Shown piece by piece: positions 1,396-28,890 of a stretch of DNA of 41,303 nt; positions within the stretch are counted from its first letter, which is position 1; each line of letters starts with the position of its first letter. The notes under the pieces are model-generated. The model had not been told where the DNA came from. It saw only the letters and a program-made list of their open reading frames with translations, and did no database searches. This DNA comes from an uncultured Bacilli bacterium (GTDB taxonomy: Bacteria > Bacillota_I > Bacilli_A > RF39 > UBA660): assembly GCA_949440065.1 (NCBI GenBank), contig CASRZP010000001.1, positions 1 to 41,303 of the forward strand. Reading direction: 5' to 3'. Position numbers and translations under genes: made by a program.

Positions 1396-1454
1396 ATTGT
1401 CGCTAGTGAATTTACTATGATTAGTATTAATCATGGCGGAAGGAGAGATGAAAA

Positions 1455-5564: not shown

Positions 5565-5648
5565 ACAAATAGTAACTTTTTCTTTTTTCTGCTTTGCATT
5601 ATAGGAAAAATATGGTAAAATACTGTACTAATGAAATGAGGGGTAATT

Positions 5649-6383
5649 GTGATTAATTTTATTATTTATGAAGATGAACTTATATTTAAAGAAGAGTACA
5701 TTAAAGTAATTCACCGTGTTATGGGAAGTGATACTAGTGTATACAAGATTCACCATTTTTCTTCTTATACAGAAAACCTAAAGAATTTGATTGAGAATAA
5801 TCGAGAGAAAAAGATTTATATTTTGGATATTGAAGTACCTAATTCTAAATCTGGGATTGATTTAGCCAGACAAATCCGAAATTGTCATGATTGGACAAGT
5901 CAAATTATTATGGTTACTGCTCATGAAGGACTAAAAGAGGGTGATTTTAGGAGTAAGGTACTAATGCTCAATTTTATTTCTAAGTATGATGATTGTTATA
6001 ATGATTTAATGAAAAGTTTGATGTTAGCACACGAAATATTAACATATGATCGACAGCTATCTATTATGCAGGAAGGAGAAATTTATCAGTTTCCTTATGA
6101 TGATATTCAGTATATTGAAAAAGACTTGGATACTGAATATGCCGTCATTCATACGAGCAAAGACTTATTAAGCGTTCGTCAGTCAATGATTAGCTTATTA
6201 AAACAACTAGATAATGATCCACGCTTTATTAGAACACACCGTAGTTGTATTGTGAATGTTTATAATATTAAAAGCGTGGATTTTCTAAATAGTATCATCA
6301 AGTTTAAAAATGGAAAAACAACAGATTTACTGTCACGAAGATATAAACGAGACTTGAAAGAACATCTATTAGTAAAAATCTAA
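5649..6383 (+). CDS. agrA: LytTR-family response regulator (AgrA-like)
   Basis: The receiver domain has an acidic pocket (YEDE), a phospho-acceptor context (ILDIEVP), T (MVTAH) and K (ISKYD). The C-terminal LytTR DNA-binding domain is present (IQYIEKD...FIRTHRSCIVNVYNI). The start is GTG with a GAGGGG RBS. Confidence 0.85.
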   Translation: MINFIIYEDELIFKEEYIKVIHRVMGSDTSVYKIHHFSSYTENLKNLIENNREKKIYILDIEVPNSKSGIDLARQIRNCHDWTSQIIMVTAHEGLKEGDFRSKVLMLNFISKYDDCYNDLMKSLMLAHEILTYDRQLSIMQEGEIYQFPYDDIQYIEKDLDTEYAVIHTSKDLLSVRQSMISLLKQLDNDPRFIRTHRSCIVNVYNIKSVDFLNSIIKFKNGKTTDLLSRRYKRDLKEHLLVKI

Positions 6384-6403: not shown

Positions 6404-7702
6404 ATGTTAGATTTTTTGTATGTTTATGTTTGCTCATTATTTAGTAGTTTAGCAATTTATTATGTTGGATATTCATTATGTGGAAATGGAAAGAAATTTT
6501 TTAGACTAAGAAGTGTAATATTATTATTGATTTTAGCCTTTTTGGTTATGGGATTATATGGTTTTATAGATATGAATTTAAGAATTCCATTGTGTTATTA
6601 TCTTTTTACTATGTTTTTTCTATTTTTCTTTAGACAACCGACTACAAATACAATGGTAGCTTCTTTGATTTCTTATGTGATTATCATTATTAGTGATTTT
6701 CCTATCTTACTTGGTTATATTGGTTTAAATTGGCTAACAGGAAATATGTTCAATTTTATTAACGAAACGATTATTGCTAACATTTTAGTAGTATTGATAT
6801 CAATGGCAATTGTTGGTATTTTTAAGAAACAACTAATAATACTATACAATAAGTTATGTAATACAAAAAAGATTGATCTTATTATATTAGCTCCAATGTT
6901 CTTTGTTACTATTGGTACCATTTTCTTTAAAGCAGGTATTAGTGGTTGGATGTATGATGAAACATTGTGGTTAAACTTACTTTTAGTAGTAACTTTTACT
7001 TCAATAACGATATATTTACTAAAAGAACAAATGAATAATGTTACAATGAAAGAAAATTATGAAGAGCTAGGAAAATATGTTAAGAATAGTGAGCAATTAA
7101 TTGAGGAATATAGGATTACGCAACATGAAAATAAAAATCAATTAGTAGTAATTAAAACAATGGTTAATACTAAAAATGAAGAACTTAATGAATATTTAGA
7201 CAACATCATCAAGGAAAAACATACCATAAAATATAAATGGATTACTTCATTAAAAAATATTCCATTAGGTTGTGTTAAGGGGTTAATTCATTTTAAACTA
7301 TTAACTATGGAAGAGTTAGGAATTTCAATTGATATTAATGTAAGTAAAGAAGTAGAAAATTCTATTTTGAAAGATTTCCCAGTAAAAAATTGGGATAGTT
7401 TAAATAAAATTGTAGGTGTATTTTTAGATAATGCAATAGAAGCAACACAAATGTGTAAAGATAAGAAATTTATTATGGATGTTTATTTAGAAAATGATAC
7501 TGTTGTGTTTGAATTTGCTAATACATTTGATGAAGTAAATCAGGATGAAGATAAGTTTATATCAACGAAAGATAAAAATAGAGGACATGGTTTAATTTTA
7601 GTAAGGCGTATAATAAAATCATCTGAAATTTATAGCAATGAAACAAGTATCAAAGGTGGATATTTTATTCAAGTATTAAAAATCAAAAAGCCTACTGATT
7701 AG
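6404..7702 (+). CDS. agrC: AgrC-like (HPK10-type) membrane sensor histidine kinase
   Basis: The first ~200 aa form a polytopic sensor with about 6-7 TM helices. It has an H-box (RITQHENKNQL), an N-box (FLDNAIEA) and a G-box (NRGHGLILV). It lies directly downstream of the LytTR regulator. Confidence 0.8.
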   Translation: MLDFLYVYVCSLFSSLAIYYVGYSLCGNGKKFFRLRSVILLLILAFLVMGLYGFIDMNLRIPLCYYLFTMFFLFFFRQPTTNTMVASLISYVIIIISDFPILLGYIGLNWLTGNMFNFINETIIANILVVLISMAIVGIFKKQLIILYNKLCNTKKIDLIILAPMFFVTIGTIFFKAGISGWMYDETLWLNLLLVVTFTSITIYLLKEQMNNVTMKENYEELGKYVKNSEQLIEEYRITQHENKNQLVVIKTMVNTKNEELNEYLDNIIKEKHTIKYKWITSLKNIPLGCVKGLIHFKLLTMEELGISIDINVSKEVENSILKDFPVKNWDSLNKIVGVFLDNAIEATQMCKDKKFIMDVYLENDTVVFEFANTFDEVNQDEDKFISTKDKNRGHGLILVRRIIKSSEIYSNETSIKGGYFIQVLKIKKPTD

Positions 7703-7770
7703 ATACCCCAAAGTAAGATTGGTGCAATAAATTTTATTAATCGGTAAAAATAATACACCAAGTAAATAGT

Positions 7771-7806
7771 AAATAAAAAAGCTATCGATAAAATAGCCTT
7801 TTTATT
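7771..7806. terminator. Candidate bidirectional terminator between the convergent agrAC-like and agrBD-like operons
   Basis: GCTAT (7781-7785) pairs with ATAGC (7793-7797). An A-run flanks it on the left and a T-run on the right. The stem is short, so this call is weak. Confidence 0.4.
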
Positions 7807-7821
7807 TACCATATCGTGTAA

Positions 7822-7947
7822 TTATTTAGTTAATAAACTCATTGGTGCTTCTGGTTCATCCATAACTACGATAATGCATGCAGCACTTGCAGCACCAGCA
7901 GCTAAGATACCAAGTCCAGTTAAAACTGAAGCTAATAATTTTTTCAT
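7822..7947 (-). CDS. agrD: AgrD-like autoinducing-peptide precursor (41 aa), absent from the ORF track
   Basis: The minus-strand ATG is at 7947 and the TAA stop at 7822-7824. A GGAGG RBS lies 5 nt upstream. The translation is MKKLLASVLTGLGILAAGAASAACIIVVMDEPEAPMSLLTK. It has a hydrophobic/amphipathic leader, a single Cys core, and an acidic Pro-containing tail (DEPEAP). It lies 55 nt downstream of the agrB-like gene. Confidence 0.8.
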   Translation of the reverse strand: MKKLLASVLTGLGILAAGAASAACIIVVMDEPEAPMSLLTK

Positions 7948-8002: not shown

Positions 8003-8599
8003 TTATTGATAGTTCTTATAATTGTTATAAGGTTGTCCTGATAACTTATAAGATAATGGACAGATCATTACTGCCTCTAAAATCATAGATGTCAATAAAA
8101 TATTCGATAAAAAGTTATCGTGTATCATAAGCAAGATAATCATAAAGATAATTCCCGTTACTGTCGTCATTATTCGATAAAAAACTCTTTTTTTACGATT
8201 TAAAATTGGTCTTTTCTTAGTATCTGCAGGAGCAAATAATAGAAATAGGATTACACAAATACTAGATAAAATAATTTTTATGGGTGTCGTTAGCATCATG
8301 ATCATACACAAATAGGGTAATAAGATAAAAATTAAAGTGGAAAATATCCAACATATCCAGCTTTTTGTAGCATGTAGTCCAAATCCAGTTAATCGTAAAA
8401 GATTGAAGAAAAACATCAATAATAACGTTTCCTTGAGAGAACCAAGTAATAAAGCACATAGCAATATGGTAACAATTTTTGTTAATGTTAGATATATTGC
8501 TTCTAGTCCATATTTAATTTCAAGAAGTTTCTCTTCTGAAAAATCTGGATTAAAGTTTTTAACTAATTTTAATGAATTACCAATTACATACTGCTTCAT
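8003..8599 (-). CDS. agrB: AgrB-family membrane endopeptidase (AIP-processing)
   Basis: This is a polytopic membrane protein with the AgrB signature LRLTGFGLHATKSWICW. The His and Cys are 7 residues apart, matching the spacing of the catalytic H77/C84 pair in S. aureus AgrB. An AAGGAG RBS is present. Confidence 0.85.
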   Translation of the reverse strand: MKQYVIGNSLKLVKNFNPDFSEEKLLEIKYGLEAIYLTLTKIVTILLCALLLGSLKETLLLMFFFNLLRLTGFGLHATKSWICWIFSTLIFILLPYLCMIMMLTTPIKIILSSICVILFLLFAPADTKKRPILNRKKRVFYRIMTTVTGIIFMIILLMIHDNFLSNILLTSMILEAVMICPLSYKLSGQPYNNYKNYQ

Positions 8600-8860
8600 A
8601 ACTTTCTCCTTTATCTTTACATTTACCAGTGTAACATACTAAAAAACCAGAAAATAAAAATCGGGATAAAAGGTGTAATTTATAAAAGATTTTGTAAAAA
8701 GTGTAAAAAAATCAAAATACAAATTACCGTTTAACCTACTTTTTTGACCATTGATATATATTTTTAAAATGCCGTCCATATTTTTGATAAGCTATTTTTA
8801 CCCCGATGATAGTACTAGTAGTGGTTAAGATGAAAAAAAGAGTAAGGAGGTAAGCAAAGT

Positions 8861-9186: not shown

Positions 9187-9717
9187 ATGCAACTAATTAT
9201 TCGAGGAGACAAAATCGAAGTTACAAAAGCAATGAACGATTATGTCAGTGAAAAGATCCAAAAATTAGAAAAGTATTTGGAAGATGCCAACGAAGTAAGA
9301 GCCAATATTTTAATTAAAATAAATGGCTTAAAGCAAAAAGTAGAAATAACGATTCCCTTAAAGTCTGTTATCTTAAGAGCAGAGGCACAAGAAAATGATT
9401 TTTATACTGCAGTAGATTTAATTATTGATAAATTAGAGCGACAAATTAGAAAGAACAAAACAAAGTTAGCAAATCGAGCAATGAAGTTCAATAAGAAGGA
9501 GTTTATTATTGATTCTATCGAGATGCTTGAAGAAGAAAATGATGATATGATTCGTAGAAAAATCATTGAAATGAAACCGATGAATGAAGAGGAAGCTATT
9601 TTACAAATGGAGTTATTGAATCATCAATTTTATTTATATAAGGATGCTACTACCAATAAGCCAATGGTGGTATATAAACGGAATGATGGCGGATATGGTA
9701 TTATAGAAACTGAATAA
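9187..9717 (+). CDS. hpf: Ribosome hibernation-promoting factor, long form (HPF/YvyD)
   Basis: The N-terminal S30AE domain is present (MQLIIRGDKIEVTKAMNDYVSEKIQKLEKYL). The C-terminal dimerisation domain is also present (KPMNEEEAILQMELLNHQFYLYKD...VVYKRNDGGYGIIE). Confidence 0.9.
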   Translation: MQLIIRGDKIEVTKAMNDYVSEKIQKLEKYLEDANEVRANILIKINGLKQKVEITIPLKSVILRAEAQENDFYTAVDLIIDKLERQIRKNKTKLANRAMKFNKKEFIIDSIEMLEEENDDMIRRKIIEMKPMNEEEAILQMELLNHQFYLYKDATTNKPMVVYKRNDGGYGIIETE

Positions 9718-9846: not shown

Positions 9847-11254
9847 GGTTCTTTGTCAAATAGTGTTGGTAAACAATAAATTTGATAAATGAATTGATTA
9901 TGTAGAGTGATTTTTAATCACTCTTTTATAATGCCTTTTATTAAGAATATACGAGCAACGAAATGTTCATATTTTCTATAGCCAAAAGCAATTCTTTTAA
10001 TGCATTTAATTAAATTATTCGTTCCTTCAATAACTCCATTATTAATATCATATTTGAATGAATTTTCTATATATTTTATATTTTCTTTGTATAATTTTAA
10101 AACTTGAATCATTTTTGGAGATAAATATTTATTTTGATTAAATGTTATTGATTTGAATTTGTTAAAGTCTTTTTCTTTTAATGAATTGATTAATCCTTGA
10201 TAGCACTCATAGGTAGCCTTTAAAGTGAAGTTAGTATTTATTAGGTATTGTACAATTTGCTTTTGAGATATTTCTTTTCCTCAGATAAGTCATTTTCCTT
10301 TTTGACAATTAAATTCCAGTAATCTTTTAATTTATTGTAATTAGGATTTGACTTATTGCATAGCTTAACTCTAGTTGAATTTAAAGCAACATAAGCTTGA
10401 AGCACGATATGAAATCTGTCTATTGATATATCTGCATTTTTAAATAATTTCTTAACAAGATAAATATAGCCAGAATAAAAGACGCTAGATATATGCTTCA
10501 CTTGATCTCTTTCCTGTTTAGAATATCGTTTAAAATATTTTTCCAAATCTCTAGACTTTCTAGAATCGTTAATATCAAATATATTGCCATTTTCATTATC
10601 AGTAATAATAAAAGCCATCTTACCTTTAGTATCCTTGGTAGCCTTAAATTCATCCCAGTTCATGGATTTAGGTAAATGAGGATGTCTTAAAACGGTGCGA
10701 GAAGATATTTCGGTAAGCTTTCTGTCTATTTTGGAAACAGAAACGTCCAATCTTTTTGAAATGTCTTTTTCACTTTGCTTTTCCATAAGTTCAAGATTAA
10801 TTTGAAGTTCTAAATTATTAGATTAGTCTCAGCAATAAAAGTGTTATTACAATTCTTACAAAAGAATCTTTGCTTATGAAGAATTAATAAAGAATAGCAA
10901 TTGGAAATTTTAGGAATTTTAATTTTACAATTTTTTCTAAAACCTCATTTAATAATGTCATTAGAAGATTGATTAACACATCCACAGCAAGGACAATAAT
11001 CAGGTATGTAAGTTAAAAATCCTTCAATAATCTTATAATTTCTATTTTTAATCTTTTTATCAGTGATTTTATTAGAAATAAAAATATTTTTGTCTTTAAT
11101 ATTTAATAAATTTAATATATAATCATTAGTGTACATAGATTTGAATCCTTTCAATGTTTTATTAGTCAATTACATTGTATCAAATCTTATGTACTTTTTT
11201 ATTAAATAAAAATAGTATTAGTGAATACTCACCAGCACTATTTATAATACAACC
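9847..11254 (-). mobile_element. ISL3-family insertion sequence (1408 bp), transposase inactivated
   Basis: The left terminal repeat is GGTTCTTTGTCAAATAGTGTTGGTAA (9847-). The reverse complement of the right end is GGTTGTATTATAAATAGTGCTGGTGA (-11254). They match at 19 of 26 positions. The element is flanked by a perfect 8-bp direct repeat. Its size and the 8-bp duplication fit the ISL3 family. The internal ORF fragments are ISL3-like. Confidence 0.8.
9918..11136 (-). pseudogene. ISL3-family transposase, disrupted by one in-frame stop and at least two frameshifts
   Basis: Three fragments are recognisable. The N-terminal zinc-finger part contains YIPDYCPCCGC. The middle part contains WDEFKATKDTKGKMAFIITD...IDRFHIVLQ. 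The C-terminal part contains NGVIEGTNNLIKCIKRIAFGYRKYEHFVARIFL. There is an in-frame TGA at 10945-10947. Frame changes occur near 10810 and near 10245. Confidence 0.8.
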
Positions 11255-11286: not shown

Positions 11287-11358
11287 GCTTTAAAATAAAT
11301 AAAAAATGATGTAGATAATAGTTTTTAAAGACAATAATGATAATAAGGAGTGATAAAT

Positions 11359-12547
11359 GTGAATAAGAATAGATTAATTATTCCTGTCTTAATGGGAATT
11401 GCTATCTTAGGAATAGTACTCATGTATAAACCGTATGCTTTATTTTCTATCCATGAAATCAGTAAGTCAGCAATTACTATCAAAGTAGGAACCATGAATG
11501 GAACAATAAAAGTAGATGGAGTGGGAGAAACTACTTTAAGCGTTCCAGCAGGAAACAGTAAAACATTTACCGTAACATTAGAAAATTTAAATAATGAATC
11601 AGGAAAGTTTTTATTTTACTATATAGGAAGTCTTTCAACGGGAGTAAAATTTGGATACTTAGAAGATTTTAATGATATTCCTCCTGATAGTGAAGGAATA
11701 GTACTTACTAGCAATGAGAAAAAAACATATTCTTTATATGTAGAAAATAATACTAATATTGATGTATCCATTCATTTAGGTGTATTAGGTGGTTTATCTA
11801 ATCAAAAATTAGAATTACCAAGTGATGGGCATGATATAGAAAAGATAGAATTAATAAAAGATGGTAGAAATCCGAATATTATAAAAATTTTTACTTATGC
11901 TCAATCACCAACTAATCCTTATTTTTGCGTAACAGGTGAAGAAAGTACGTGTGAAGAAAAAAAGGAAGCTCCAAGTTCTTATTACAGTGGTACAATTATA
12001 AAATATAGGGTGAATGATAGTGAAGAAAAATATTTTCATGTATTATCAGAGACTTCTACGACTTTAACCCTTCAACAACGAGAATATAGCATGGTATACA
12101 GTAGATAATAATACGAAAGGACCTACTGTAATATTATCCGCGTTAGAAGAAGCCACAAAGGGATGGACGAATGTATTAGATCAAGTATATACTCTATCAT
12201 ATAGTACAGGTTGTGATTTTAGTTCTTGCACACAAACACAATATAATTTAGGTTCAAGGAGGTCTAAAGCAAGATTAATCACATTAGAAGAAGTAAAAAA
12301 GGTAGGATGTAAGATAACAGATCAATCTGGTCCTATATGGATGTATAATTATTTAAGACGTTCAACAAATTATGGAGGAACGATGAATTCTTTTAGCGAT
12401 AATGGATATTGGACTAGTTCAGCTAGTACAGATTCAACAAATGCTTGGTTTATCTATGATTACGGAAAAACGACAACGCATAATACATCCTATAAATATG
12501 GAGCTAGGGCAGTAATTACGATAAATAAGAAAGCAAATAACACTTAG
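11359..12547 (+). pseudogene. Secreted or membrane-anchored protein of unknown function, split by a frameshift near 12068-12105
   Basis: The 11350/11359-12108 ORF has an N-terminal TM/signal anchor. The reading frame that ends at 12547 is already open from 12068, overlapping the first ORF. The join reads ...TLTLQQRE / NIAWYTVDNNTKGPTV.... The C-terminus (GYWTSSASTDSTNAWFIYDYG...GARAVITI) resembles DUF1566/Lcl-C-terminal-like domains, recalled from memory. Confidence 0.6.
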
Positions 12548-12615: not shown

Positions 12616-15108
12616 ATGAACATTATAAAAAAATGGTTTGATCATGAGTATAAAGAATTAAATCGTTTTCAAAAAATTGCTGATCAGATTGTAGCATTAG
12701 AAGACGATATGATAAAATTATCCGATGAAGAATTAAAAAATAAGACAATTGAATTTAAAGAACGTTTAAAAAAAGGAGAAACTTTAGATGACTTGCTAGT
12801 AGAAGCATATGCTGTATCAAGAGAAGCTTGTTTTCGTGTTATTGGTGAGAGACCTTTCTATGTGCAGTTATTAGGTGCTATTGCGATTCATTTTGGAAAT
12901 ATTGCCGAAATGAAAACTGGTGAAGGAAAGACCATTACTAGTGTTATGCCAGCTTATTTAAATGCCTTAACTGGTGATGGTGTTCATGTAATTACAGTAA
13001 ATGAGTACTTAGTAAATCGTGATGCTGAATGGATGGGTGGAATTCACCGCTTTCTAGGTCTAACCGTTGGAGCAAATAGTAGGGACTTAACACCAAAAGA
13101 AAAACAAGAACAATATAATTGTGATATTTTGTATACAACCAATAACGAAGTAGGATTTGACTATTTACGAGATAACATGGTGGTAAAAAAAGAAAATCGT
13201 GTCCAACGTGGACTAAATTTTGTTATTATCGATGAAGTGGATTCTGTATTAATCGATGAAGCACGTACACCTTTAATTATTTCCGGGGGTGAAATGAAAA
13301 GTGCTAATCTATATATTGATGCAGACCGTTTTGCCAAAATGTTAAAAGAAAATGAACAATATATCTATGATGAGAAAACTAAAAGTGTTAGCTTAACTGA
13401 TGAAGGTGCTGAACAAGCTGAGAAGTATTTTAAAATTGATAATTTATATGATATCAACCAAACGACTTTAGTACATTACATCAATATGGCTTTAAAAGCA
13501 AATTATACGATGAAGTTAGATGTAGATTACGTGGTTCAAGATGATGAAGTAATTATCGTTGATCAATTCACTGGCCGTTTGATGAAAGGTCGTGCATTTA
13601 GTGATGGACTTCATCAAGCAATAGAGGCTAAAGAAGGCGTTCATATTAATCAAGAAACGAAGACTCTAGCAACGATTACATTCCAAAATTTGTTTAGAAT
13701 GTATAAAAAAATTGCCGGAATGACAGGAACAGCAAAAACGGAAGAAGAAGAATTTAGAAATATTTACAATATGTATGTTATCGAAATTCCTACCAATAAA
13801 CCTATTGCTCGTATCGATGCACCAGATTTAGTGTATGCAACGAAAGATGCTAAATATAAGGCAATTATTCAAGAAATTGTGGAACGTTATCAGCAAGGGC
13901 AACCAGTACTTGTAGGTACAATTGCGATTGAAACGAGTGAATTGATCAGCAAAATGTTAGATAAAAAAGGAATTCCTCATGAGGTATTAAATGCGAAAAA
14001 CCATGCTCGTGAAGCAGAAATTATTGCTAAAGTTGGTTTACATAAATCAGTAACCATTGCAACAAATATGGCAGGACGTGGAACAGATATTAAGTTAAGT
14101 GATGAAATTAGAGAACTTGGTGGATTATGTGTCATTGGAACAGAACGTCATGAATCTCGTCGTATTGATAATCAGTTACGTGGTAGATCAGGTCGTCAAG
14201 GAGACCCTGGATATACGCAATTCTTTGTTTCGATGGAAGATGATTTGATGATTCGTTTCGGGTCAGATAGAATTAGGACCATGATGCAATCTTTAGGTTT
14301 TGGAGAAAATGCTATTCAAAGTAAAACATTTACGAAAGCGATTAGTACAGCACAAACTCGTGTTGAAGGAAATAACTTTGATATTCGTAAACAATTATTA
14401 CAATATGATGATGTAATGAATAATCAAAGGGAAATTATGTACAATAGACGTAATGAAATACTAGATCAAGAAAGTGTTCATCCGATGATTATGGATACTT
14501 TTCACAATCATATTGCTGATTTAGTAAATTCACATATTATGCCAGAAGGATATTTAACGGACAAAGATATAGAAGAAATTGTCGAAGCTGCAAATGGAAA
14601 TCTTTTAAAAAAGGATATTATTGTGGATGAGGCAAAAGGTAAGAAGGAAGAAGAGTTAATTGAATATCTTTATGATAAAGTTGTAGCAGAATATGATGAA
14701 AAATTAAAAGATATTCCAGATGAAGTGAAAAATGAATTTGAAAAAGCATTGAGTTTAAGTGTTGTGGATAACTATTGGATGGAACATATTAATACTTTAT
14801 CTCATTTACGAGAGGGAATTCATTTAAGAAGTTATGCTCAAGAAGATCCATTACGTGCATATACTACTGAAGGTTTTGAATTATTTGATCAAATGCTACA
14901 ACGAATTGATAAAGATGTGACTATTTTCTTATTAAAAGCAGAAGTTCATCATAATATTGAACGTCGTGAGAATACGAAAAAGCAAATTACGAATAGTAAA
15001 GATGAAAGTAATGGAAAAAAGAAGCCAAAACGTGTAGAAAAAATCGGTAGAAATGCTCCTTGTCCTTGTGGTTCGGGGAAAAAATATAAACAATGCTGTG
15101 GAAAGTAG
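12616..15108 (+). CDS. secA: Preprotein translocase ATPase SecA
   Basis: The 830-aa protein has Walker A (MKTGEGKT), a DEAD-like box (IIDEVDSVLIDEARTPLIISG), and TNMAGRGTDI. The C-terminal zinc-binding tail is CPCGSGKKYKQCCG. Confidence 0.97.
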   Translation: MNIIKKWFDHEYKELNRFQKIADQIVALEDDMIKLSDEELKNKTIEFKERLKKGETLDDLLVEAYAVSREACFRVIGERPFYVQLLGAIAIHFGNIAEMKTGEGKTITSVMPAYLNALTGDGVHVITVNEYLVNRDAEWMGGIHRFLGLTVGANSRDLTPKEKQEQYNCDILYTTNNEVGFDYLRDNMVVKKENRVQRGLNFVIIDEVDSVLIDEARTPLIISGGEMKSANLYIDADRFAKMLKENEQYIYDEKTKSVSLTDEGAEQAEKYFKIDNLYDINQTTLVHYINMALKANYTMKLDVDYVVQDDEVIIVDQFTGRLMKGRAFSDGLHQAIEAKEGVHINQETKTLATITFQNLFRMYKKIAGMTGTAKTEEEEFRNIYNMYVIEIPTNKPIARIDAPDLVYATKDAKYKAIIQEIVERYQQGQPVLVGTIAIETSELISKMLDKKGIPHEVLNAKNHAREAEIIAKVGLHKSVTIATNMAGRGTDIKLSDEIRELGGLCVIGTERHESRRIDNQLRGRSGRQGDPGYTQFFVSMEDDLMIRFGSDRIRTMMQSLGFGENAIQSKTFTKAISTAQTRVEGNNFDIRKQLLQYDDVMNNQREIMYNRRNEILDQESVHPMIMDTFHNHIADLVNSHIMPEGYLTDKDIEEIVEAANGNLLKKDIIVDEAKGKKEEELIEYLYDKVVAEYDEKLKDIPDEVKNEFEKALSLSVVDNYWMEHINTLSHLREGIHLRSYAQEDPLRAYTTEGFELFDQMLQRIDKDVTIFLLKAEVHHNIERRENTKKQITNSKDESNGKKKPKRVEKIGRNAPCPCGSGKKYKQCCGK

Positions 15109-16348: not shown

Positions 16349-16705
16349 ATGGCAAGGGTATTAAAAAATAAAAAGCTAGTAAATACAAGATTAGCAACTA
16401 ATTATGGTGGATGGATGTATTGTGATAAATGTAATGAAAATATAGGATATTTATGTTATTCAACCTATGATAAATTAGAGCTAAAATATAAATGTAATTG
16501 TGGAAGTCAAGGAAATGTTGTATTGGATTTTGAAGATAGTAAGATAGGACAAAATTGTAATGATGAATTAGTTATGATAAAAAATAGATTTTGTTGTCCT
16601 AAAGATAATGAGCCATTGATTACAATATTAGATAAAAAAGTAGTGAGTTACCAAATGAAAATTACTTGTAAATCATGTTTAAAACTTTATAAAAAAGAAA
16701 AGTAA
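16349..16705 (+). CDS. Cys-rich hypothetical protein (multiple CxxC/CxC pairs, zinc-ribbon-like)
   Basis: The RBS is GAAGGAG. The protein is 118 aa with CDKC...CNC...CC...CKSC motifs. I recognise no family. Confidence 0.5.
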   Translation: MARVLKNKKLVNTRLATNYGGWMYCDKCNENIGYLCYSTYDKLELKYKCNCGSQGNVVLDFEDSKIGQNCNDELVMIKNRFCCPKDNEPLITILDKKVVSYQMKITCKSCLKLYKKEK

Positions 16706-25840: not shown

Positions 25841-26443
25841 ATGAAAAAAGGAAAATTAGGAATAGGAATTATTATAGCACTAGCGTTAATTATAGTTGCT
25901 GCGTCTGTCTTTAGAATGATAAATCCAGTAGAAACTCACGAAAATGACCATCAAAAGTTTGCGAAGGAATATCAAGAAGTAACAGAAGATAATGTTTTCG
26001 TCTATCGTGATGCTAACCAAATTATAAAAATTTTAGAAAATGGCAAAGGAGTAGTATATTTAGGTTTTCCTGAATGTCCATGGTGCCAAAGATATGTTAA
26101 ATATTTAAATGAAGTAGCAAAAGATATTGGTATTGAAAAAATTTATTATTATAATATTCGTGAAGCTCGTAACAATAATACAGAAGAATATCAAAAAATG
26201 GTATCTATCTTGGAAGAACATTTACAATTTGATGAAGAAGGAAATAAAAGAATATATGCACCTAGTATTATTGCGGTAGACTCATCTAAAATTATTGGCT
26301 TTGATGATGAGACAGCATGGGATACCAAAGGACATGAAAAACCAAGTGATTATTGGACAGAGGATGAAGTAGGCGATTTAAAAGAAAAATTAAAAGAAAT
26401 GATGAACCCAGTAAACGATAATTTATGTACAAATTGTAATTAA
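25841..26443 (+). CDS. Membrane-anchored thioredoxin-fold protein (CPWC active site)
   Basis: There is an N-terminal TM anchor. The motif GFPECPWCQRY is a CxxC in a thioredoxin-like context. Confidence 0.55.
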   Translation: MKKGKLGIGIIIALALIIVAASVFRMINPVETHENDHQKFAKEYQEVTEDNVFVYRDANQIIKILENGKGVVYLGFPECPWCQRYVKYLNEVAKDIGIEKIYYYNIREARNNNTEEYQKMVSILEEHLQFDEEGNKRIYAPSIIAVDSSKIIGFDDETAWDTKGHEKPSDYWTEDEVGDLKEKLKEMMNPVNDNLCTNCN

Positions 26444-26505: not shown

Positions 26506-28890
26506 ATGATTTCCTATCAAGATTTAGAAAAACTACATGTACCAGAAGATACAAGAAAATTTATTGATGATTTATTGTGTGCCATACACTTTTTTGTAGA
26601 AGAAAAAAGGGGAAACGCTGATTTTAGTGAATATAGTACATATGCTATTCTTTATACCATGTATCATAGTGAAAAGTGGATTAATGTTTTAGGAAATTTA
26701 GTAAAAGATTTTTCTAGTTTGAAAACTACTAATAATGATGATTATCCTGTTGAAATTTCTAATCATCGAAAAATAGAACTTTTTGCCAAATATTCTTATT
26801 TATTTGATTCTTGTAGGATGGAAAATTATCGTTATCTTCATCCATTAGATATTTTACTATCATCACTTAAAGATATTGTTTATGATTATCATTTGGTAAA
26901 TAAAATATATAAGATTCCCTATAATTCTGTTGCCGATATGAAATTTTTCGTAGTAAATCACTTATATCCAAATACAATAAACCAGATGAATGACGAATTG
27001 TTTGAACATTTAAAAGGAACAATAGATGAGTCGCTATTTGTTTATTTACAGATTGCCTCAAAGCTTAACCATAATTGGAATAAAAAAGGAAATTGGTATA
27101 GTGATTCCTTGCCTCTTTTATATGCCATATTTATCAGGTCTAAAACGATATCCATAGAGGAAGAATATATCCGAAATTTGTTACTTGCTAGTGGTTTAAC
27201 CTATAAGAAAATGGCAAATCCAGTTGATTTTCATTTGGAATTATATAAAGATAATGTTGATGCCGATTATTTTTATATCAATAGTCTATTAGAAGGAGAG
27301 TATTCATCTTGTAAAAGTATAACTGACCTTTTTGTAACTATGATTACCAAAGATGAAAAAATAAAAGAGTATTTACGAATGATTAGTACTTCTTCTTATA
27401 ATAAGTTTAGAAAATGTTTACTCGATAAAGATTATGCTAAATCTATGCTATACGTGATGAAATGGAATGATATAAAGGACATCAATATTGAACATTCACT
27501 AGAAAGTATCATGAGTATTCACTTAAGGCTTCAAGCATTGATGAAAGATTCTAATATATTAACGGCTTTACTAAAAAAAGAGAAAGATATCGAAAAATTA
27601 TCCTTTTTTCTAGGATTATATCTAGACCATGATGCTAAACAGGAAGAAGAATACCAACAACGTTTAGAAAAATATGGTTTTTCTCGTTTAGAGATTTTGA
27701 ATACCTTAGGAATAACTTTTGATTTTCCGATAGATGAGGAAAAATTTCCACAGTTATTTGTGGAAAACTATTTAAAGTATCTAATAGACCCTGTGGATAA
27801 AGAAAATTTAAAAATGGATTTTCATCTGATGGATATTTTCTTTGGTTCTACATTAAATGATAGTAAAGTCTTAGAAAAATTAGCCCAAAAGATGAATGTT
27901 GATTTAAAAAAACTAAAAATTGAACTAGAAACAGGACGTGATTATGAAGAGAGCCTAACCCAAGAAGAACGCTTAGTCTTATTATCTAATCAACAAATAG
28001 AAACCCTAGACTCTACCAAACTAGATAGCATTTTATCTTTTGGTTCTACCTTGTTTCATTCTGCTAATTATATACATACCGAAATGCCTAAGTTAATTGC
28101 TAGTGATACAAACGAAAAATCTATTGCAACAATTAATCAAACCTTACAAAATATATATCAACAAGATAACAAAAAACCGTCATTTTTCACTAAATGGTTT
28201 CTAAGAAAAAAAGAAAATAAAGTCGACATAAAAAGAGTGGACTCGTCTCTTCTTGCCCAGTTAAAAGAGTCTATTGAAGAAAATATTCAAATCTTATCAC
28301 AAGAACTACTTGGTTACAATTACCTTCAAGACTATATTGCCGTTTATTATCAGAAAAATTTATCCTATTTGAAAATAGCCAGCATGGAATTAGAAAAAAT
28401 AGAAAAAGAGGTTTCGTTAACTACATCAGATGAAGATTATGCACATCTATTGCAAATGCGTACTAGAGTACAATTATTATCTGATAAAAAGAATCATTTT
28501 GAAGTATCGAATCAATTAATGAAGCAACAACTACTTAAAGTTAATCAAATGATGATGAACCATTCCATTACTTTAAATGCTTTAGAAATGGCAAGAGATG
28601 ATTTAATTCCTTTAATGGGAATAGAACTATCGATTAGTAAAGGTCTATCTACAGAAAATGATTCTAGAGAATTAACGAATGGTATTATGGATTTATTTCA
28701 AACTTTGTTAAATCAAAATCAAGAAGGAATAAAAGAAAATATCAAACGATTAAAGAAATCGGGTGTGTCTGATGAAATTTATGCTCTTATTGATAAAGAT
28801 GCACAATCTTTCTTACAAAAATTAACAGAAAACTCAAATAATGAAATAGAAGATGCTAAGATAAAGCAATTAACAAATAATAAAAAATAA
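26506..28890 (+). CDS. Large (794 aa) uncharacterised cytoplasmic protein with a TelA/YaaN-like C-terminal region
   Basis: The RBS is good and an extended -10 (TGTTATAAT) lies upstream. The last ~230 aa (LLQMRTRVQLLSDKKNHFEVSNQLMKQQLLKVNQMMMNHSITLNALEMARDDLIPL) resemble the conserved TelA helix bundle, recalled from memory. The N-terminal ~500 aa is unassigned. Confidence 0.55.
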   Translation: MISYQDLEKLHVPEDTRKFIDDLLCAIHFFVEEKRGNADFSEYSTYAILYTMYHSEKWINVLGNLVKDFSSLKTTNNDDYPVEISNHRKIELFAKYSYLFDSCRMENYRYLHPLDILLSSLKDIVYDYHLVNKIYKIPYNSVADMKFFVVNHLYPNTINQMNDELFEHLKGTIDESLFVYLQIASKLNHNWNKKGNWYSDSLPLLYAIFIRSKTISIEEEYIRNLLLASGLTYKKMANPVDFHLELYKDNVDADYFYINSLLEGEYSSCKSITDLFVTMITKDEKIKEYLRMISTSSYNKFRKCLLDKDYAKSMLYVMKWNDIKDINIEHSLESIMSIHLRLQALMKDSNILTALLKKEKDIEKLSFFLGLYLDHDAKQEEEYQQRLEKYGFSRLEILNTLGITFDFPIDEEKFPQLFVENYLKYLIDPVDKENLKMDFHLMDIFFGSTLNDSKVLEKLAQKMNVDLKKLKIELETGRDYEESLTQEERLVLLSNQQIETLDSTKLDSILSFGSTLFHSANYIHTEMPKLIASDTNEKSIATINQTLQNIYQQDNKKPSFFTKWFLRKKENKVDIKRVDSSLLAQLKESIEENIQILSQELLGYNYLQDYIAVYYQKNLSYLKIASMELEKIEKEVSLTTSDEDYAHLLQMRTRVQLLSDKKNHFEVSNQLMKQQLLKVNQMMMNHSITLNALEMARDDLIPLMGIELSISKGLSTENDSRELTNGIMDLFQTLLNQNQEGIKENIKRLKKSGVSDEIYALIDKDAQSFLQKLTENSNNEIEDAKIKQLTNNKK

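Follow-up and report, generated by a model that had tools for sequence, protein, structure and literature searches.

In the agr system of Staphylococcus aureus (agrBDCA), which yields the autoinducing peptide (AIP) AIP-I, YSTCDFIM, with its five-residue ring, AgrB cuts the precursor AgrD1 between M32 and D33, the ring cysteine being C28 (PMC10196373). For this cleavage, the two acidic residues right after the cut, D33 and E34, are indispensable, and on the side of AgrB, residues R70, G75, H77, and C84 are required (PMC10196373). A larger ring has been described in Clostridium acetobutylicum, whose AgrD reads ...GKCVLVTLYEPKMPEELL (PMC10301443, supplement) and whose native AIP was identified by HRMS as a tail-less, 6-membered macrocycle (PMC8251862). 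Rc-AIP1 of R. cellulolyticum, CWFWSY, was also detected by HRMS and is six-membered and tail-less, and all clostridial AIPs detected so far are devoid of an N-terminal extension. Tail-less thiolactones rearrange fast to homodetic cyclopeptides by an S-to-N acyl shift; for the Listeria pentamer thiolactone, the half-life of this rearrangement is 1.3 min at 37 °C. From gut microbiomes, numerous families of AIP precursors are already known through large surveys (PMC11953309).

Here, we describe a locus of this kind in a stretch of DNA of 41,303 nucleotides (the window) from an uncultured gut lineage. A 41-codon ORF on the minus strand (7822-7947, stop codon included) follows agrB directly and faces the genes of a sensor kinase and a response regulator. 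We read it as agrD, encoding the ribosomally made precursor of a cyclic autoinducing peptide, within a complete agr module of the layout agrB>agrD> <agrC<agrA, and assign to this reading a probability of roughly 0.88. The AgrD/AgrB/AgrC/AgrA system found here is of a known kind, and its precursor is an unexceptional member of an established family.

The small gene and its partners

Direct reading of the minus strand places the ATG start codon of agrD at 7947-7945 and its TAA stop codon at 7824-7822; a Shine-Dalgarno sequence, GGAGG (7957-7953), precedes the gene, separated from the ATG by the 5-nt spacer 7952-7948. The product is MKKLLASVLTGLGILAAGAASAACIIVVMDEPEAPMSLLTK. ORF, GGAGG, spacing, stop codon, and peptide had all been given in an earlier note on this DNA, and on re-reading they proved exact. 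The same note had called the gene unannotated, which is true only with respect to an ORF track limited to at least 60 aa, since public gene callers already predict it: a gene for exactly this 41-aa peptide has been called on 14 public contigs (NCBI, JGI, ENA, and Logan assemblies), with no name recorded for it in the searched sequence collection. The gene is, in other words, already in public databases and was missed only by that track, a reminder for annotation that ORF-length cut-offs hide agrD genes.

A size of 41 codons alone proves nothing, because the AT-rich window contains many ORFs of 30-45 codons, and an ORF this short could in principle be a chance product or a degenerate, unexpressed remnant. 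Against such an origin stand the strong ribosome-binding site, the terminator right after the stop codon, and above all the comparison with relatives. The peptide is kept across lineages whose AgrB proteins are just 40-50% identical, and agrD of the window differs from that of the sister lineage by three bases only, all of them at third codon positions and silent; the AgrB proteins of the two are 91% identical. These comparative data exclude a chance ORF, to which we give a negligible probability. As evidenced by public gene calls, homologues, AgrB-linked orthologues, and silent differences, the agrD ORF is real, far beyond chance.

Membership in the AgrD family was assessed with profile models. 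In the comparison with NCBIfam TIGR04223 (AgrD family cyclic lactone autoinducer peptide), the peptide reached 19.7 bits at a cut-off of 19.0 (E 6.8e-4), a narrow pass by only 0.7 bits that is backed by its relatives, 33 of 34 of which also match the model when scanned one by one (best E 7.5e-9). The threshold of Pfam PF05931 was not reached (12.7 bits vs. a gathering score of 22.7); we take this model as narrower than TIGR04223, since Pfam names it "Staphylococcal AgrD protein". The profile-HMM search that had been proposed as a check on the ORF consequently gave a split outcome, positive for TIGR04223 and negative for the staphylococcal Pfam model, and the former, together with the matching relatives, supports the description of the product as an AgrD-type precursor.

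The orientation of agrD is that of agrB (8003-8599, minus strand), whose stop codon lies 55 nt upstream, and the same arrangement is present in 74 related loci. The agrB product, the predicted membrane peptidase/cyclase for AgrD, matches PF04647 with 107.2 bits (threshold 23; E 8.1e-31), so that the neighbour which the earlier note had named agrB-like is a bona fide AgrB. Its residues R69, G74, H76, and C83, invariant in an alignment of 20 homologues, have exactly the spacing of R70, G75, H77, and C84 of S. aureus. Searching the PDB sequences with AgrB returned nothing at E <= 0.01. That the ORF encodes an AgrD processed by this adjacent AgrB is, in our judgement, very likely.

On the plus strand, and converging on agrBD, two further genes complete the module. 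The agrA-like gene (5649-6383) encodes a LytTR response regulator (LytTR E 8.9e-18; Response_reg E 2.4e-6), and the agrC-like gene (6404-7702) a GHKL sensor histidine kinase (HATPase_c_5, E 7.5e-10). The kinase aligns over its full length to NF046015 (staphylococcal AgrC) with E 4.5e-19 and the regulator matches NF046049 (AgrA) with E 3e-13, both far below the equivalog cut-offs; judged by these matches, the AgrC-like and AgrA-like proteins are homologues, rather than orthologues of proven function.

Compared to S. aureus, the locus has in common the AgrB residues R, G, H, and C at identical spacing, an HPK10-type AgrC-homologue kinase, and a LytTR regulator, but differs in gene order and orientation as well as in an AgrD that stays below the staphylococcal Pfam model. 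No RNAIII-like effector was found by an Rfam search of the window. With C. acetobutylicum it shares the separate transcription of agrBD from the kinase and regulator genes, whereas the window has the regulator gene ahead of the kinase gene, both pointing towards agrBD. A further difference concerns the LanM-like CA_C0082, reported downstream of the C. acetobutylicum agr cluster: no such gene was found among the genes flanking the module, where a Glycos_transf_4/MreB set adjoins one end and CSD/HPF/SecA the other. Of 81 loci, 65 keep the convergent layout; in the majority of the others, downstream sequence is missing.

Conservation of the precursor in related genomes

A search with the agrD peptide uncovered 19 homologues at 61-76% identity, in all of which the leader end ...AAGAASAAC, with its Cys, and the D-E pair six and seven residues past this Cys are invariant. 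For a broader view, the AgrB alignment was scanned against one genome per species, resulting in 80 loci, all from uncultured gut MAGs carrying the labels Bacilli, "Tenericutes", Ca. Scybalousia, Ca. Coprosoma, or Ca. Faecisoma; Ca. Coprosoma and Ca. Faecisoma have been placed in the GTDB order RF39, family CAG-822 (PMC8035907). By script, AgrD-like ORFs directly downstream of agrB were recovered at 74 of these approximately 80 loci. Cys24 is without exception in both collections (21/21 in the close-homologue alignment, 74/74 among the agrB-linked orthologues), and the AgrD peptides were anchored on it for column statistics, with residues counted over the 72 peptides that read C-x5-[DE]E.

The distance from Cys to [DE]-E is remarkably uniform, with five intervening residues in 72 of the 74 peptides and six in the other two. 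Between these fixed points the sequences diverge strongly: entropy amounts to 2.3-3.3 bits at C+1 to C+5 (3.33 at C+1, 2.48 at C+4, and 2.33 at C+5), then drops to 0.18 bits at C+6 (D in 70/72) and to 0 at C+7 (E in 72/72). Proline follows at C+8 in 62/72 and at C+11 in 60/72. On the other side of the Cys, S or T is found at C-3 in 70/72 and A, G, or S at C-1 in 71/72. The 74 peptides have 69 distinct cores, in which residues other than I, L, V, F, W, and M are rare. The family as a whole displays a conserved leader, a hypervariable core, and a conserved acidic, Pro-containing tail, in line with the three-part layout described in the earlier note for the single peptide; its proposal that the Cys and an E-P-x-x-P tail should be conserved in related genomes also withstood the comparison of the 74 loci. 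A hypervariable core that defines pherotypes, as well as a tail beginning with D-E and containing a conserved Pro, are likewise features of S. aureus.

Two deviations within the family were recorded. A second Cys occurs in the tail at C+10 (DEPECPKSLIK) in 34 of the 72 peptides, including L030, L032, L038, and about 30 other loci, a position at which the subfamily of the window carries M or A. The two peptides with six residues between Cys and D-E belong to L043 (CIIWFLF) and L070 (CIFLLIA), and for these, seven-membered rings are predicted from the C-x6-DE spacing.

Ring, leader, and predicted signal

The predicted core of the window peptide is CIIVVM (residues 24-29; 7861-7878, minus strand), as delimited by the invariant Cys, the variable positions C+1 to C+5, and the alignment to C. 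acetobutylicum AgrD. The codon of Cys24 occupies 7876-7878, and the carboxyl group of Met29 is its predicted thiolactone partner. The remaining residues, 30-41, form the C-terminal recognition tail DEPEAPMSLLTK (7825-7860, minus strand), marked by its conserved D, E, and P residues and predicted to be removed by AgrB. Cleavage is predicted at M29|D30, as the S. aureus enzyme cuts directly before D-E and this pair stands here at C+6/C+7 and not at C+5/C+6.

Aligned with hhalign, the AgrD family profile and C. acetobutylicum AgrD match without a gap, pairing C24 with C34, D30 with Y40, E31 with E41, P32 with P42, and P35 with P45. Both share the pattern C-x5-[Y/D]-E-P-x-x-P-x-x-L-L and a hydrophobic core, which in C. 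acetobutylicum gives the six-membered tail-less AIP CVLVTL, and differ in the first tail residue, Y there and D in the window. The window peptide, with C24-x5-D30-E31-P32-x-x-P35, has the spacing of the six-ring subclass; by this alignment, the six-ring type of C. acetobutylicum is the nearest match to its core geometry.

In the earlier note, a canonical five-residue ring, CIIVV, had been proposed, with AgrB cutting four residues past the Cys and before MDEPEAP. Most characterised AIPs do have 5-membered rings, as does S. aureus, and C+4 is somewhat less variable than C+1. Position C+5, however, is as variable as the ring positions, and conservation sets in abruptly from C+6, so that the conserved tail starts at D30. 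A five-residue ring is also difficult to reconcile with the ungapped alignment to a precursor whose AIP is 6-membered, with a S. aureus cut located immediately before the essential D-E, and with the C-x6-DE relatives, which show that the Cys-to-tail distance varies, the ring changing in length while the tail stays fixed. We regard the shorter ring as unlikely. The start of the tail at D30, the alignment, and the position of the S. aureus cut favour CIIVVM, and a ring of six residues rather than five is probable; being the more likely size, it rests on alignment logic and on one or two characterised 6-ring systems. The spacing from Cys to tail should accordingly serve as the guide to AIP ring size, in place of a presumed five residues. 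The view that the signal is unusually hydrophobic also had to be given up, since all-aliphatic cores are normal in this family.

The leader (residues 1-23, MKKLLASVLTGLGILAAGAASAA; 7879-7947, minus strand) is invariant or nearly so in close homologues. After MKK, it continues with some 20 residues that are hydrophobic or small, and it looks more like a signal peptide of the Sec or lipoprotein type than like an amphipathic helix, the form that the leader takes in S. aureus AgrD. The C. acetobutylicum leader is different again, being long (approximately 33 residues), charged, and unrelated.

This resemblance raises the question of whether the product might be a tiny secreted lipoprotein or Sec-exported peptide, with an MKK n-region, an h-region, and a lipobox ...SAAC, whose adjacency to agrB would be coincidental; 3 of 34 relatives do show weak matches to mollicute lipoprotein signal models (spiralin_LP, E 0.02). 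The lipobox consensus is [LVI][ASTVI][GAS]C, with a large hydrophobic residue (L, V, or I) at -3. The S or T that occupies this position in nearly all of the AgrD relatives does not agree with it, and about half of the family begins without an N-terminal K or R (e.g., MTFIASLL...). Moreover, the mature part would comprise just 17 residues, the conserved portion of which is exactly the AgrB recognition motif D-E-P-x-x-P, and neither the linkage to agrB in 74 loci nor the matches of the relatives to TIGR04223 would be expected from a coincidental neighbour. On account of the residue at -3, the missing basic n-regions, the AgrB motif, and the agrB linkage, we rejected this explanation as highly improbable.

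For the AgrD reading, the same residues carry information on the N-terminal end of the signal. Type I signal peptidases follow the -3/-1 rule. The leader ends with S-A-A, which puts small residues at -3 and -1 relative to the Cys, and S/T at C-3 and A/G/S at C-1 throughout the family fit this rule, which suggests a cut directly before the Cys. Whether the signal peptide is tail-less, as predicted from these positions, we consider an even question. If it is, with the leader removed at the predicted site directly before the Cys, the free alpha-amine would drive an S-to-N acyl shift as in the homodetic cyclic AIPs of Clostridia and Listeria, and the mature signal may be homodetic cyclo(CIIVVM). 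Its computed [M+H]+ is 659.3619, that of a peptide with one Ala exotail 730.3990.

The course of events proposed here takes the genes, their family, their conservation, and their neighbours from the present data and models the processing and sensing steps on the S. aureus and clostridial systems. AgrB, by means of Cys83 and His76, would recognise the D-E-P-x-x-P tail and cut AgrD between Met29 and Asp30, and the acyl-enzyme would be resolved by Cys24, giving the six-residue thiolactone C-I-I-V-V-M. A second protease would remove the leader, the conserved S-x-A suggesting a cut directly at the Cys, and the tail-less ring ([M+H]+ 659.362) may then turn into a homodetic cyclopeptide through the acyl shift. 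Outside the cell, the peptide would be sensed by the AgrC-like kinase, which would phosphorylate the LytTR regulator, and the latter probably binds 21-bp-spaced repeats upstream of agrB, closing an autoinduction loop.

Putative regulatory sequences, surroundings, and meaning of the locus

A terminator-like hairpin with a T-run, computed on the window sequence, lies directly after the agrD stop codon (7767-7811, minus strand). A 37-aa ORF on the same strand (7699-7812) was weighed as a possible further gene of the module, the fifth, but discarded, having no family match and no counterpart in the sister lineage; it is probably spurious, as the hairpin overlaps it. The gap between the convergent stops of agrD and agrC (7703-7821) is 119 nt long in the window, compared with 28 nt for the sister lineage, and the additional DNA contains this ORF and a 20-pair hairpin.

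Upstream of agrB, direct repeats were sought as 10-mers with at least eight matches and at least three G/C at spacings from 10 to 44. Repeats spaced by 21 bp were present in 16 of 78 loci, against approximately one expected in shuffled sequence, and at any other spacing the number of loci was 0-4; the 21-bp-spaced repeats are mostly located 150-180 nt upstream of the agrB start codon. Paired sites 21 bp apart are typical of LytTR regulators. The window has such a candidate LytTR-type box pair at 8723-8755 (minus strand), made up of ATCAATGGTCAA (8755-8744) and TTAAACGGTAAT (8734-8723), about 150 nt upstream of agrB and 21 bp apart; with a weak match of just 7/12, this pair is put forward as a candidate site only. 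At the corresponding position, L009, L012, and L015 reveal 9-10 of 12 repeat matches.

Analysis of k-mer enrichment upstream of agrB provided lineage-specific words (TTCGACA, TTGCGCA, and TGATATCA) and no family-wide motif. Another 12-nt direct repeat, TTACACYTTTTA, occurs at 8706-8695 and 8678-8667 (8667-8706, minus strand) with a spacing of 28, and a third TTACAC stands near the agrB start at 8634-8629. As the sister lineage L009 lacks the first copy, this repeat was not counted as a regulator site. In front of agrA, a promoter-like element with a TG extension is located at 5593-5621, after an inverted repeat behind the upstream gene.

The lineage of the window has a G+C content of 28%, is labelled "Tenericutes", and encodes SpoIIID, MreB, and two Peptidase_M23 proteins, one of which has a PcsB coiled-coil domain and adjoins an FtsX-family permease and an ABC ATPase. 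Almost every ORF of at least 100 aa is on the plus strand, agrBD and transposase fragments being the main exceptions, and GC skew is positive throughout the window. The transposase, of the ISL3 family (DDE_Tnp_ISL3), is split into three ORF fragments and apparently broken (9918-11169, minus strand); together with the ORFs 11350-12108 and 12341-12547, these fragments sit between hpf (9187-9717) and secA (12616-15108). Since secA directly follows hpf in the sister lineage (L002 and L003), this region represents a lineage-specific insertion of approximately 2.7 kb. Four plus-strand ORFs gave no Pfam match at E <= 0.001, namely 26506-28890 (794 aa), 25841-26443 (200 aa), 11350-12108 (252 aa), and 16349-16705 (118 aa). 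The sole Rfam match in the window was an L31-Firmicutes ribosomal protein leader (1415-1445, plus strand; 34.6 bits vs. a gathering score of 33.3), and the 41 kb yielded no tRNA genes.

Neither agr nor quorum sensing is mentioned in a phylogenomic paper on uncultured Tenericutes, RF39, and RFN20, for which reason the lineage-wide presence of agr may be undescribed, although it holds no conceptual surprise. Tentatively, and at somewhat less than even odds, we suggest that a large undescribed lineage of AgrD, spread over uncultured, reduced-genome gut Bacilli of the order RF39, makes tail-less, all-hydrophobic macrocycles of six, occasionally seven, residues which turn into homodetic cyclopeptides. 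If this is true, 69 rings in 74 species-level genomes would point to dense pherotype partitioning or cross-inhibition among uncultured gut relatives. The complete agr module is conserved in many RF39-type genomes, and cyclo-CIIVVM is a concrete, synthesizable prediction of a quorum signal for an uncultured gut lineage; with module and prediction in hand, synthetic peptides could serve to study or influence organisms whose cultivation is not yet possible.
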